Assembly (NCBI GenBank): GCA_030619885.1
Contig: JAUXAN010000002.1
Span: 30,934 to 94,933 of the forward strand
Direction of reading: 5' to 3'
Length of the DNA stretch: 64,000 nucleotides
Source: a bacterium
GTDB lineage: Bacteria; Hydrothermota; DG-26; JAUXAN01
The position numbers were made by a program, and so were the translations under genes. This document shows, one piece after another, positions 9,509 through 27,189 of the stretch. Under the pieces are notes generated by a model. The model was not told the origin of the DNA. It saw only the letters and a list, made by a program, of their open reading frames with translations, and did no database searches. The stretch's first letter is position 1. Each line of letters begins with the position of its first letter.

Positions 9509-10209
9509 ATAGAAAGCGTTGGTCAAAAGATAAAAAGCAAGTTTTTGTAGAGAAGGAAAAGATGGATGCCTATGAGCATAAAATGGGCTACTATGCCCGG
9601 ACTATAGACCAGAAAGTTGTCTCCTCATTTTTAGACAATGAGAAAGGCTTTATACTGGATTTGGGGTGCGGTACAGGGAGGTTTACAAGTTTTCTCGAGA
9701 GCAGTGGTGCCAGAGTGATAGGCGCTGACTATTCTCCTGGTATGCTCCATGTTGCTCAAAAGAGAATAAAATCTCCTCTTGTAAGATGCGATGCATTTAA
9801 TCTACCCTTTAAGGATAATGTTTTTGATAATGTGCTCTCTATGCGTCTGATTTTTCACTACTACCGACCGAGAGGAATAGTAGAAGAGGTAAAGAGAGTC
9901 ATGGATGATACTGGAGCATTTGTTTTTGACTCACTGAACAAATATTCTTTAAGGTATTTCTTATATTTTATTCAGCGAGTTTTTCAAAGAAGGGCAGGAA
10001 GACAGATGTGGTATGCCTCAAAAAAGGAAATGCTCGATTTTATAACATCGATTGGACTGGGGATTGAAAAAAGTGAATCAAGATATCTCCTTCCAACTCG
10101 ATTTTATAGATTTCTACCCCATGTATTGATTTTTATTATAGATAAAATAGAACCATTTTGGCCTGCACCCCTGAGACAGATTTCATATTGGAAAACACGA
10201 TGTAAATAA
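9505..10209 (+). CDS. Class I SAM-dependent methyltransferase (3 of 3)
   Basis: LDLGCGTGRFT motif I. Confidence 0.65.
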   Translation: MNRKRWSKDKKQVFVEKEKMDAYEHKMGYYARTIDQKVVSSFLDNEKGFILDLGCGTGRFTSFLESSGARVIGADYSPGMLHVAQKRIKSPLVRCDAFNLPFKDNVFDNVLSMRLIFHYYRPRGIVEEVKRVMDDTGAFVFDSLNKYSLRYFLYFIQRVFQRRAGRQMWYASKKEMLDFITSIGLGIEKSESRYLLPTRFYRFLPHVLIFIIDKIEPFWPAPLRQISYWKTRCK

Positions 10210-13596: not shown

Positions 13597-13704
13597 GGGA
13601 CGCAGATTTTCAGGATTCAAAAATTAGAAGATTAAAGATTGAAAAGAATTTGCAATCTCCAAATCTTTCAATTATCTGCGTTTATCCGCGTGTATCTGCG
13701 TCCC
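13597..13704. repeat. TIR-flanked short element copy 1 with three phased 9-mers TTATCTGCG/TTATCCGCG/GTATCTGCG at 10-bp period
   Basis: GGGGACGCAGAT at 13597-13607 and its inverse ATCTGCGTCCC at the right end; boxes at 13672-13680, 13682-13690 and 13692-13700; an AT-rich run follows. Confidence 0.6.
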
Positions 13705-13746: not shown

Positions 13747-15288
13747 ATGAATAGAATCAAGACCGAAATAGGAGGGTATAGGAAAAGAAGGGGAAATACC
13801 TCTTTCTGTCTCGTCTATCCCAATATCTACGAAGTTGGAATTGCCAATTTAGGTTTTCAACAGGTGTATAAACTCTTGAATCAGATAGAGGGTGTCTATT
13901 GTGAAAGGGGATTCTATTGTGAAGGTCCATTTAAATCTTTTGAGAGCAGTAGAAAATTGAGTGATTTCTCAATTATCGGATTCTCATTCCCTTACGAGTT
14001 AGATTATATGAATTTCTTTAAAATTCTAAAACACTCTAAAATTCCCATATTTTCAAAAGACCGTGGTCCCCGTTTCCCACCAATAATCGCAGGTGGTGTC
14101 TCCGTTTCAGCCAATCCGACCGTACTCGCCCCATTTGTAGACCTCTTCGTAATAGGAGAAGCAGAAGAAATCTTAGGTGAAATCGTAAAAGTCTTCATCA
14201 ATAATAAAAAGAAGCAGAATTTTCTTAAAGCAGTCTCTGAAATTGAAGGGGTCTATGTCCCTGAACTTGGAAGGGGGAGGATAGAGAGAAGATGGGTCTC
14301 CGATCTGAATAGATTCCCTACCTCATCCTGTATAATTTCCCCCCACTCGCATTTCAAAAATATGTATCTTGTAGAACTTGAAAGAGGGTGTCCGTATAGG
14401 TGCAGATTCTGTATGGGGGGATATTTTCACAACCCTTACAGGGTGAGAGACCACAGAAAGTTGATTGAACATATCAAGACAGATAGGCTGCCAAAGAAAT
14501 CTATCGGGCTCATTGGTGCTGCGATTTCAGAATTCCCACACCTTGAAGAGACAATCCGTGAGCTCTCACCACTTACCAATACTATCCATATCTCATCTTT
14601 AAGGCTCGACAGGGTGAGCAAAAAGTTGGTATCGTTGTTGGTCAAAAAGGGCTTGAAACAACTAACGATTGCACCAGAAACAGGAGGGGAGAGGTTAAGA
14701 AATATCATAGGGAAGAATATAGAAGATGAGAAGATACTTGAGGTTGTCTCATATTGCAGTTCCGCAGGTGCTGAGGGGATCAAACTCTATTTTATGATAG
14801 GGCTCCCTTTTGAGACCGATGATGATGTATTTAAAATTGGAGAACTGATTAAGGAGATTAGAAGAATATATAATAGAAGGATTACAGTTAGCATAAACCC
14901 TTTTGTCCCAAAACCTCACACACCATTTCAGCACCACAATATGGAGGGAAGGGAGAATTTGAGAAGGAAGATGAGATTGGTCGAAAATTCGTTAAAAGTC
15001 GTAGACCCGTATGGGGGGATGAAGGGAATAAAGGTGATCAAAAAGGGAATAAGGGAAGCGATACTTCAGTCAATAGTCTCGAGGGGCGATGAAAAGATCG
15101 GAACTGCATTAGGCAACAGTATTTTAAGGGGTTCACCAGTGCAAAGAATTTTTTTGGAAGAGGGGATAGATACCGATTTTTACACAGGCACAAGGGAAGA
15201 AGTAACTTTCCCATGGGATTTTATACACTCAAAAATTGACAGGAAGGGTCTTTACACTGAATATAGAAGAGCGAAAGAATCTATTTAG
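13747..15288 (+). CDS. Radical SAM protein with N-terminal B12-binding-like domain (TIGR03960-like family)
   Basis: [24 protein letters not shown]-terminus; [13 protein letters not shown]3CX2C motif. Confidence 0.65.
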
Positions 15289-15472
15289 CCTTTTTCACTG
15301 CCCCTGAACGGAGGCATCTTGTGCACACATAAATTTTTTTAACTTTGCCATCTATAACTGCCCTTACCCTTTGAAGATTGGGCTGCCATTTTTTCTTCGT
15401 TACATTATGGGCATGACTCACCGAATGTCCAAATTGTCCTATCTTACCGCAGATCACACATTTTCTTGCCAT
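15281..15472 (-). CDS. rpmB: 50S ribosomal protein L28
   Basis: [57 protein letters not shown], classic L28; start placed at the internal ATG preceded by GGAGG; -35 TTGACA on the minus strand at 15517-15522. Confidence 0.9.
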
Positions 15473-15529
15473 AGTTCCTCCATTATTAATCCCCATGTTA
15501 CATATAATCTAAAACTTGTCAACTTAATA

Positions 15530-15731
15530 GGGACGCAGATTTCCGCAGATAAACGCAGATAATTCAAAGATATAATTCACTTATAGTCACTCGTTTACGT
15601 TAATCGGTTACGATGCTCGTTTTGTCCTTTGGTGACGGAGTCCGCACATCCGTAACCTTTAACCGCGCCACGATACGGGCTTCGTTACCGTTAAACTTTT
15701 ATCGATTCCGAATCTATGTGTATCTGCGTCC
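15530..15731. repeat. TIR-flanked element copy 2 (about 200 bp, GC-richer, internally self-complementary) with three phased boxes AAATCTGCG/TTATCTGCG/TTATCTGCG on the minus strand
   Basis: GGACGCAGATttccGCAGATaaacGCAGATaatt at 15531-15563; inverse GTATCTGCGTCC at 15720-15731; internal GGTTACG/CGTAACC pairings. Confidence 0.6.
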
Positions 15732-15762: not shown

Positions 15763-16341
15763 TCAGTGGAGATTGAATTTGGGCTCTTTCCCTTTGAGCA
15801 AACGTTTTATATTCGAAATATGCCGTACGAGTATTAAGCAGGCAACAACGATTGCCAAAAGAAAGAGCGGGAAAGGTCTTTTCATAAAATAAATCAGAAC
15901 AGGTGCACATACCGCAGCGGTCATACTCGCAAGCGATACATATCTGAAGCCAAGCAGGACTACGACCCATATACCGAAGCATAATAAGACAGGGACTGGT
16001 ACCAATCCCAGAAACACGCCCAGGGCTGTTGATACCCCCTTGCCACCTCTGAACTTCAAAAAGGGTGTGAACATATGTCCTAAAACAGCACCCACACCCG
16101 TAGTTATCCCATAATTAATGCTATATCGAGCGACTATAAATGCGGGAAGAAAGCCCTTAACCACATCGAAGAGAAATGCTACACCACCTGCTTTCTTGCC
16201 ACAGAGCCTCGCCACATTGGCAGCACCTATGTTGCCACTCCCTGCTTTCCTTATATCTACACCTTTCAATTTTCCGATGAGAAAACCAAAAGGTATTCCA
16301 CCTGCCAGAAAACCAATTAGGAAAAATAGAACAAAGTTCAT
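15763..16341 (-). CDS. plsY: Glycerol-3-phosphate acyltransferase PlsY
   Basis: GSGNIGAANVARL and overall PlsY membrane topology. Confidence 0.85.
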   Translation of the reverse strand: MNFVLFFLIGFLAGGIPFGFLIGKLKGVDIRKAGSGNIGAANVARLCGKKAGGVAFLFDVVKGFLPAFIVARYSINYGITTGVGAVLGHMFTPFLKFRGGKGVSTALGVFLGLVPVPVLLCFGIWVVVLLGFRYVSLASMTAAVCAPVLIYFMKRPFPLFLLAIVVACLILVRHISNIKRLLKGKEPKFNLH

Positions 16342-17730: not shown

Positions 17731-17787
17731 GAGGTGCTATGTACCGAGTAAAACGAGGTGCTATGTACCGAGTAAAACGAGGTGCTA
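17731..17787. repeat. 24-bp direct tandem repeat GAGGTGCTATGTACCGAGTAAAAC, 2.4 copies
   Basis: Seen directly; followed by the hairpin GGTCAGatttttCTGACC at 17788-17805. Confidence 0.7.
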
Positions 17788-17943
17788 ATGGTCAGATTTT
17801 TCTGACCCCACGCATTATATATCTTTCAAGGGGTCAAGAAAAAATTGACTTCATTTCATTTTTGTAAGTTCTTGAAACAAAATCTATTCCCCTCTTTGAA
17901 TCAAGTTAAATAATTAATTAAAGTAAAATCTGCTTTTTCTGGG

Positions 17944-22030: not shown

Positions 22031-22312
22031 ATTTCCTGAAATAAATCTATCCTTCGCAATTTTGTTTATCGTCTTTGGGCTTTCAGAAGCACGATGATAA
22101 ATATGCAATATAGATTGAACTTTGTCAAGTGCAGAAATCGAAACTTCTGAAAAAGTCTTCCTAACCACGAGATTACATCTCAAGATCCGTATGGACAAGA
22201 TTAACACAAGAAAAATTTTCACTTTAAAAATGAAAGCCATTTTTATAATCTCCTGCTATTCGGCAGTTTCGGTGTTATTCAGTCATACGACCCGTATGGG
22301 TGTTTTTACACA

Positions 22313-23286: not shown

Positions 23287-23917
23287 GTTATATGAAGTGG
23301 CTGGCATGTTACTGTTGGATTATCTTTCCCGCCTGCTCCTTACGAAGGAGGGCGGGCAGGCAATTGCTCTAATATCTTGGATAATCCCTTTTTTCTCTAC
23401 TTCTCGGTGGACGAGCTTCGTCAACTTTCAAGGTACGTCCTTTGAAATCGGAACTGTCCAACGCTTCTTTTGCTTTTTCAGCTTCAGATGGGTCAGACAT
23501 TTCAACAAACCCAAAGCCTTTACCTTCAATTATATTAATTTGTTTAACCTCACCATAATTGGAAAACAATTCTTCCAACTGCTGATTAGTTACAGAATAA
23601 TCAAGGTTTCCTACATAAAGTTTGCTACCTTGCATTCAATCCTCCTACTTTGTCCCGCACTAATACTTTGGTGCGGGGTTTATTTTTCTCTGGCCAATAA
23701 CGTTTCTTTGGAGGTAGAAGCAAAATAGCAATTCTAACCTCTCTGATGAGAACATTATTAAACACAAGAGAACTCTTATTGAAAACTTGTATCACCTGCC
23801 TGTACTGTAGATGCAGGCAGGGAAAATTTATCCCGTTAGATATGAAATTATCTCACGGGGTTTAATCGAGTATTCTTATCACCTCCTTTCACTATTTGCC
23901 AGCCACTTCATATAACT
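23287..23917. repeat. Perfect 20-bp inverted repeat pair bracketing the RRM gene
   Basis: GTTATATGAAGTGGCTGGCA at 23287-23306 and TGCCAGCCACTTCATATAAC at 23898-23917; verified base by base. Confidence 0.8.
23369..23635 (-). CDS. RNA-binding protein with a single RRM domain (Rbp/glycine-rich-type)
   Basis: KLYVGNLDYSVTNQQLEELFSNYGEV (RNP2) and KGFGFVEM (RNP1); AGGAGG SD; hairpin CCCGCAC...GTGCGGG at 23654-23678 abuts the SD. Confidence 0.8.
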   Translation of the reverse strand: MQGSKLYVGNLDYSVTNQQLEELFSNYGEVKQINIIEGKGFGFVEMSDPSEAEKAKEALDSSDFKGRTLKVDEARPPRSREKRDYPRY

Positions 23918-24165: not shown

Positions 24166-24262
24166 TGTCAAGAAAAAAAGAACCCACGAAACACATTCAC
24201 CCCGTTAGATAGCAAGCATCTAATCCCTACGGATCCGTATGGACGGGGCAGGTTACACGAAT
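24166..24262. repeat. Intergenic repeat element A: two minus-strand TTGACA boxes bracketing CCCACGAAACACATTCACCCC / TACGGATCCGTA palindrome / GGGGCAGGTTACACGAAT
   Basis: Related copies at 53705-53790, 22163-22200, 37051-37085 and 23835-23865. Confidence 0.55.
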
Positions 24263-27019: not shown

Positions 27020-27189
27020 GGTCTGTACTCTTTAGAGTAATAATAGGGACAGTCCCCATTTTCTCATGAAAATATCTTTTCCACCTCTCCTTTGATTTAC
27101 ATATTTTTTAAAAATAGGGGCCAATTCTTATTTTTTCAAACAAAAGTAGATTTTATCACTACGGATCCGTATGGAAAGGTTTGACCCCA

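Follow-up and report, generated by a model that had tools for sequence, protein, structure and literature searches.

The spacer between plsY and rpmB holds a non-coding inverted-repeat insertion (copy 2) that belongs to a widespread repeat family, the members of which are built from phased ATCTGCG boxes. The explanation that we favour, on balance, is a mobile, hypervariable palindromic repeat akin to MITEs and REPINs, in which arms made of decamer arrays enclose an arbitrary centre. A second, shorter member (copy 1) lies within 2 kb, and the family is of greater interest than the plsY-rpmB locus itself. The features needed to follow the argument are listed here, numbered along the 64-kb window (the whole stretch of DNA that was analysed):

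15531..15731, no strand assigned: copy 2, inverted-repeat element in the plsY-rpmB spacer, 201 bp, with exact 10-nt termini and a 15-nt inverted repeat
15534..15560, plus strand (ATCTGCG on the minus strand): rpmB-proximal arm of copy 2, three CGCAGAT boxes at an exact 10-bp spacing (15534-40, 15544-50 and 15554-60)
15561..15711, no strand assigned: variable centre of copy 2, reaching 49% GC and containing an imperfect inverted repeat (15598-15616 / 15679-15696)
15712..15731, plus strand: plsY-proximal arm of copy 2, with a degenerate box ATCTATG (15712-18), an intact ATCTGCG (15722-28) and the terminus GTCC
15281..15472, minus strand: rpmB (ribosomal protein L28), the downstream neighbour, 63 codons plus stop as called in relatives, where Pfam finds Ribosomal_L28
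15495..15522, minus strand: rpmB promoter match TTGACA-16-TAACAT, outside copy 2 and starting 8 nt from it
15763..16341, minus strand: plsY, the upstream neighbour and last gene of gpsA-merR-plsY (minus-strand order gpsA, MerR-family gene, plsY, spacer, rpmB)
13747-15288, plus strand: radical SAM gene, converging on rpmB
13598..13703, no strand assigned: copy 1, paralogous element between a YfhO-family gene and the radical SAM gene, 106 bp, with the same pair of 10-mer termini
13674-80, 13684-90 and 13694-700, plus strand: the three boxes of copy 1, which has one further box at its left end, the mirror layout of copy 2

The 10-mer GGACGCAGAT is present exactly four times in the window, forming two inverted pairs (13598-13607 plus with 13694-13703 minus, and 15531-15540 plus with 15722-15731 minus). 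The second pair bounds copy 2, its reverse complement forming the ATCTGCGTCC end, and the terminal inverted repeat reaches 15 nt (AATAGGGACGCAGAT/ATCTGCGTCCTTATT, 93%). Read on the minus strand, the rpmB-proximal boxes are AAATCTGCG (15534-15542) and two of TTATCTGCG (15544-15552 and 15554-15562). The original prediction had described these termini, the three phased boxes on the opposite strand at the left end and a lone GTATCTGCG at the right (15720-15728), and all are found in place. The right-hand box is indeed intact, but it is not the sole box at that end, since the degenerate ATCTATG stands in phase with it. Over 14 nt this plsY-proximal arm is identical to the end of copy 1. Phased arrays of at least two boxes are confined in the window to the loci of the two copies; shuffled sequences give a mean of 0.5.

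Placing rpmB at 15281-15472 makes the plsY-rpmB spacer 290 nt long. The TTGACA -35 element that was predicted beside the insertion is confirmed, and the promoter match is conserved in a relative with 92% identical PlsY (L151) and not alignable in one with 81% identical PlsY (L153). The only ORFs that overlap either copy are short (42-66 aa) and are judged spurious, and Pfam searches of the arm translations gave nothing above threshold. On its far side, rpmB (minus strand) meets the convergent radical SAM gene (plus strand), and the two ORFs overlap by 8 nt (15281-15288). Plus-strand read-through from the radical SAM gene would cross rpmB antisense into copy 2 and then meet TTATTTTT.

Alignment of the two copies identifies them as paralogues, their three-box ends with 11 nt of inner flank being 85% identical over 48 nt. 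Both have the size and ends of a MITE, being small and non-coding (201 bp and 106 bp) with terminal inverted repeats of 15-16 nt, which supports the predicted repeat family with such termini and a variable internal length. The orientation flip that had been read from the pair does not stand. Followed along the transcription of the flanking genes, both copies run alike, from gene end through one box, centre and three boxes to the next gene, and the apparent flip reflects only that the flanking genes lie on opposite strands.

Beyond the window, the family was traced with the strict pattern ATCTGCG-N3-ATCTGCG-N3-ATCTGCG, which has 21 fixed bases and an expectation of about 0.3 chance matches in 596 Gb. 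It has at least 120 matches in a species-representative genome collection. Among the matches listed are Cyanobacteria (Nodularia, Dolichospermum, Microcoleus and Stigonema), Planctomycetota, Verrucomicrobiota, Acidobacteriota, Nitrospirota, Chloroflexota, several proteobacterial orders, Latescibacterota, NC10 and Alicyclobacillus, together with archaeal Methanoperedens and Methanosarcinales MAGs on contigs of up to 448 kb. An initial scan for ATCYGCG-N3-ATCTGCGTCC in viral sequence picked out three phased boxes on contigs of 39-68% GC, many of them as inverted pairs with a short spacer. The strict pattern is present in 25 viral stretches, which derive from many unrelated samples. The reversed heptamer, with 3 matches, is the usable control, because the 31 matches of a permuted heptamer (ACTTGGC) come from one homologous phage locus and do not form a clean background. 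Cultured phages gave no BLAST match, and plasmids gave three weak ones (Dolichospermum, Sphaerospermopsis and Skermanella). Several copies can occupy one genome region, with up to 3-4 per 8 kb in four of the loci fetched (L011, L013, L088 and L093) and two in the 64-kb window. The further copies that had been anticipated outside the window therefore exist in many bacterial phyla, archaea and phages, and the family is shown to be widespread, at many unrelated intergenic sites. The boxes are not specific to the source genome, and the family spans bacteria, some archaea and phages.

The usual layout is AAC-(CGCAGAT-RRA)n, a variable centre and (TYC-ATCTGCG)n-GTT, set in a short intergenic spacer. 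The decamer unit consists of two variable bases, usually A, followed by CGCAGAT. In 192 aligned arms the consensus is ATCTGCGTTC ATCTGCGTYC ATCTGCGGTTAA, the base following each inner box is T in 83-92%, and the other two linker positions are variable. Centres, of 7 to about 200 nt, show no similarity from one locus to another; copies in one genome have centre or flank sequence in common. Subfamilies are set by the terminal triplets AAC/GTT, AGC/GCT, GTC/GAC and GGA/TCC, the last of which is the window type and also terminates elements in other contigs (e.g. L004). Across 28 elements the outermost triplets covary (AAC/GTT in 15, AGC/GCT in 9, other pairs in 2, unpaired in 2), with a covariation score of 0.168 against 0.103 +/- 0.009 in shuffles, a score that relatedness of the sequences can inflate. 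The two termini of a copy vary together, and this, with the sequence common to copies of one genome and the 48 nt common to the two window copies, speaks for inheritance as a unit.

Some arrays have a different setting. The chromosome of Alicyclobacillus mengziensis carries seven perfect tandem ATCTGCGTTC units with no inverted partner nearby (L100, 7227-7293). In three Nostocales loci an ATCTGCG array of 3-4 units occupies the loop of a GAGGTACAAG...CTTGTACCTC inverted repeat (L030 3624-3660, L043 7788-7814 and L091 4278-4314), and the recurrence of this unit of about 100 nt between unrelated flanks (Nodularia, Dolichospermum, Sphaerospermopsis) marks it as a composite repeat. In Methanoperedens (L090 139-595 and L036 1914-2399), ATCTGCG arms are accompanied by CACAAAG/CGCAAAG...CTTTGCG palindromes and by CGCGGAT palindromes in a 9-nt phase. 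These mixed palindromes suggest a broader class of box-array palindromes with other heptamers.

Relatives of the source genome disclose how the two sites change. In the contigs that are 95-98% identical to the window in DNA (L144, L145 and L213-L216), the copies are kept at the sites each contig covers, and copy 2 is kept in those examined at its site (L144, L145, L213, L214 and L215). L151 also has an element between plsY and rpmB, with a different centre: its left arm is AACCACAGATAAACACAGATGGACACAGAT, its 74-nt centre is AT-rich and unrelated to that of copy 2, and its right arm is degenerate. L153 has an empty site, its spacer measuring 87 nt against the 89 nt that remain of the window spacer when the element is subtracted; at 81% identity, an insertion and a deletion would look alike. 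The states of L151 and L153 imply that the site is polymorphic for the element and that one centre can freely replace another. Related genomes thus differ in the presence and in the length of the element, which supports the suggested mobile family.

The number of boxes differs even among the close strains. L144, L145 and L215 lack one decamer (CGCAGATAAA) of the three-box arm of copy 2 and retain two boxes there, a clean 10-nt indel. At the left arm of copy 1 the window and L216 have one box, L213 has two, and L214 has two that are split by a perfect 35-nt hairpin (TAACCCCGTTAGATATAAAAATTATCTAACGGGGTGA), a relative of which lies in the window at 23831-23860. Over about 19 kb aligned with L213, all indels of at least 10 nt are repeat units or small palindromes, and L214 adds two alike. 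The centre has the same orientation as in the window in all strains examined at either site (L144, L145 and L213-L216), and the two opposite orientations expected of an inverton were not seen in this small sample. Four short public assemblies of the source organism and its relatives terminate inside or at the edge of the two elements (L001, L002, L144 and L152), either because the arms are repeated elsewhere in the genome or because heterogeneity in box number breaks assembly graphs. Among TA06/WOR-3 relatives, the 16-20 kb fetched around plsY contained no arrays.

Family-wide, crude ORF calls place 48 elements between tandem genes, 20 between convergent and 12 between divergent ones, and 16 within long, possibly spurious ORFs. 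The elements typically lie 10-30 nt from the flanking genes and fill the short spacers between them. Their neighbours are unrelated housekeeping genes, such as GT2 glycosyltransferases, response regulators and transporters, and two of the viral contigs (L011 and L013) are genuine phages, with Mu-type portal, capsid, connector and tail tube genes, that carry the element in several late-gene spacers. Clustering of neighbouring proteins at about 140 loci found no recurrent family within 1.5 kb of the arrays. Neither a transposase nor a recombinase was found inside or beside the copies, including the few arm pairs that stand 0.5-3 kb apart, where Pfam searches of the candidate cargo ORFs were made and the ORFs are housekeeping or unknown genes. 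The samples extend over 8 kb each, and a rare master copy with a transposase may lie outside them. No target-site duplication was found outside AAC...GTT in aligned copies from L011, L013 and L093, and the window flanks have no direct repeats beyond those expected by chance for AT-rich DNA.

The original prediction of a non-autonomous mobile family is therefore upheld in its repeats and its polymorphism, but not in the MITE hallmarks of target-site duplication and a matching autonomous element. Counting against mobility are the lack of a transposase and of a target-site duplication, and the presence of only two copies in the 64-kb window and of none in the sequence fetched around plsY from the TA06/WOR-3 relatives. 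A near-identical 7-mer across phyla and domains is also unusual for transposase recognition sites.

The mechanism that we propose for a mobile repeat is one in which the element would spread as a unit, like a MITE or REPIN. The boxes are probably protein-binding sites. Set one helical turn apart, they would offer several same-face sites to a hypothetical recombinase- or transposase-type protein encoded elsewhere, the predicted target of which is (GAACGCAGAT)3 DNA as against a mutated box such as GAACGCTCAT. Such a protein could join the two arms or act on the extruded hairpin. Replication slippage would add and remove decamers, and mobilisation would leave no target duplication. Copy 2 lies past the 3' end of plsY and ahead of the rpmB promoter and would disrupt neither, and read-through transcripts from plsY would carry a long closing stem.

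Among known systems, MITEs such as Correia and ERIC/IRU resemble the family in several respects. Like them, its members are small and non-coding, have terminal inverted repeats and a variable interior, and are intergenic and often co-transcribed. They also reach several copies per genome in some hosts, are common to phages and hosts, and differ in presence and absence between relatives; the two dispersed window copies and the empty orthologous site of L153 are instances of these properties. Unlike MITEs, the ATCTGCG family has neither a detected target-site duplication nor a cognate insertion sequence, and its arms are tandem 10-bp units with a number apparently altered by slippage. MITE families are usually confined to a genus or family, whereas the ATCTGCG heptamer is kept across many phyla and archaea. 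REPINs, the inverted REP doublets mobilised by RAYT, are similar in their inverted arms, short spacer and potential for a long hairpin, in their lack of a target duplication and of an internal transposase, in arms that evolve together, and in their location in short intergenic spacers. Each REP unit forms a stem-loop of 20-40 nt that bears a GTAG or CGTC tag (PMC3733652), unlike the ATCTGCG arms, which are direct RRA-CGCAGAT repeats with no internal stem and no tag. No RAYT gene (encoding a Y1 HUH transposase) was found beside the arrays sampled.

A function selected in the transcript, compatible with a mobile origin, is unlikely to account for the family. The palindrome would then be a long intercistronic hairpin that stabilises mRNA 3' ends, is processed by RNase III or terminates transcription in both directions. 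Elements do lie 10-30 nt from stop and start codons in co-directional gene strings, including phage late operons, and in 68 of 80 intergenic cases a gene 3' end is found on at least one side. The arms are 86% paired overall, the outward flanks of the family are mildly T-rich, and TTATTTTT trails the plus-strand stem of copy 2. However, each of the linker positions is unpaired in 29-43% of 28 elements. In co-directional gene pairs, the transcribed strand shows no excess of G-U (34) over A-C mismatches (28), which gives no sign of selection for an RNA helix specifically. The terminator scan found none at either window copy, where the loops far exceed its 8-nt limit, and a hairpin function would leave the conservation of one heptamer across phyla unexplained.

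It is also rather improbable that the boxes are cis-regulatory operator or iteron arrays, in which a factor bound to the three proximal boxes and the distal inverted one would loop the DNA and control rpmB and the radical SAM gene. Iteron and operator arrays, including plasmid iterons, ParR-parC, OmpR/PhoB-type sites and P2 Cox boxes, likewise consist of short boxes at a spacing of about 10 bp, in direct and inverted orientation. They are tied to one replicon, gene or regulon and imply cooperative binding of protein to one face of the DNA. The 10-bp phasing of the ATCTGCG boxes would set them on one helix face in the same manner. The three-box arm is the one nearer to the next gene in the two window copies, which have the same polarity relative to that gene, and at rpmB it stands 8 nt from the -35 element; decamer arrays upstream of a single gene also exist in phages. 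This regularity is not maintained in the family, where the asymmetry in box number is without polarity to transcription (14 against 14, tallied by hand), and where the arrays stand at hundreds of unrelated loci without a linked gene, the neighbours including phage structural genes and convergent pairs. Many copies lie so close to the following start codon, at only 10-20 nt, that a promoter would not fit between them. Furthermore, L153 has the same gene order without the element, and box number differs among near-identical strains. Regulation by the arrays and folding of their transcripts may each occur as secondary or local effects of a mobile repeat.

The interior of copy 2 is very unlikely to be an independent structured ncRNA gene or a riboregulator of rpmB or plsY. 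It had been described as a markedly GC-rich, self-complementary core and taken as a possible structured RNA. Its GC content does exceed that of the window (a peak of 49% against 39%), but neighbouring coding DNA reaches 51-54%, so that "markedly" is an overstatement; internal pairing exists, in the form of the imperfect inverted repeat, but the resulting fold is weak. The whole of copy 2 folds better than shuffled sequence (z of -4.0 on the plus strand and -3.0 on the minus strand), mainly because of its terminal stem, and the interior alone is barely better than shuffled (z of -1.3 on the gene (minus) strand and -2.1 on the plus strand). Three substitutions distinguish the interior in close strains over about 160 nt, and when the alignments are set against the predicted fold, a G-U pair on the plus strand would survive one of the three.

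At gathering scores, neither the window nor any of 12 loci with typical elements matched Rfam 15, and nothing relevant appeared around the plsY-rpmB locus at E-values up to 10; in E-value mode the overlapping sub-threshold matches were all to microRNA-precursor or other eukaryotic hairpin-type models. Scans for tRNA and tmRNA found none, and the interior has no convincing promoter or terminator of its own. The window and all fetched loci hold no other copy of this interior save the same-site copies in the 95-98% strains; it is exchanged for unrelated sequence in L151 and absent from L153. Non-conservation of this kind essentially refutes an RNA gene, and the suggested structured payload is not supported. 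We infer that the GC-rich centre is passenger sequence and lineage-specific filler rather than a gene, possibly a nested palindrome. Copy 2 might be a copy-1-like element that took up a nested GC-rich insertion, but once the putative insert is removed, the centre that is left has no significant similarity to copy 1 or L151. In practical terms the result for the plsY-rpmB locus is negative, as it holds no new RNA gene.

That the elements are integron attC-type recombination sites is scarcely credible, since the imperfect palindrome, the variable centre of 7-200 nt, the position between co-directional genes (at some loci in every spacer of a gene string) and the consensus flanks ATTTAAC...GTTAAAT of the commonest subfamily, which fit RYYYAAC/GTTRRRY, are offset by window ends of GGAC/GTCC, by AGC/GCT or GTC/GAC ends in other subfamilies, by longer, sequence-conserved arms (30 nt of repeats) without bulged bases, and by a housekeeping or phage context with no integrase recurring nearby, the gene strings with an element in every spacer being phage structural operons.

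The palindromes of ATCTGCG arrays may form a class of DNA element, so far undescribed and either selfish or recruited by its hosts, that passes between phyla and domains, a proposal that we hold only tentatively. Its driver would be a hypothetical sequence-specific protein or a hairpin-based copying process, with one heptamer as the target throughout Cyanobacteria, Planctomycetota, Acidobacteria, candidate phyla, Methanoperedens and the phages of these groups. On this view the window copies, in which change between strains continues, would count as active members. Small palindromic repeats of the REP, REPIN and MITE kinds are as a rule restricted to a lineage, and only a few have a known mobilising enzyme. 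One 7-mer common to distant phyla, archaea and phages would thus point to a very promiscuous mobilising protein or to an unrecognised common host factor. Finding it would explain frequent assembly breaks and spurious ORFs in environmental genomes, and could provide a marker for linking phages to hosts. Literature searches by box and arm strings and by encoded peptides returned only primer or other coincidental matches, and concept searches returned REP/REPIN and MITE papers describing different anatomies; a description may exist elsewhere in the literature. A relation to DnaA boxes, the Fur box, ECF promoters or mimicry of 23S rRNA was rejected, as they match over only 4-7 nt.

Other small repeats were met in the window. 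A perfect 24-nt tandem repeat (GAGGTGCTATGTACCGAGTAAAAC) of 2.4 copies lies just upstream of gpsA (17731-17787) and has one unit fewer in L213. It is followed at 17794-17838 by a 45-nt palindromic segment, TGACCCC...GGGGTCA, that is absent from L214. A hairpin family of the form CCCGTTAGATA-loop-TATCTNACGGGG is represented in the window at 23831-23860 and 24200-24211 and in L214 at 9820-9850; the 35-nt copy between two boxes of copy 1 is present in strain L214 only.

The mini-hairpin TACG(N3-4)CGTATGG looks like a second family of small mobile palindromes. It occurs at 22286-22299, 24228-24242 and 27160-27174 (three copies against none expected), and CCGTATGG is found seven times against 0.5 expected, including at 2649/2665 and 22187. 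L213, at 95% identity, lacks the copies at 22284 (18 nt) and 27157 (20 nt), and in L151 the right arm of the element is interrupted by this motif. Finally, related phage contigs in IMG/VR (L182-L212, many from sample 3300045988), encountered through the permuted control pattern, carry (GGTACTTGGC)n in 3 to more than 10 units at one orthologous site just upstream of a gene start, which looks like an iteron or operator array.
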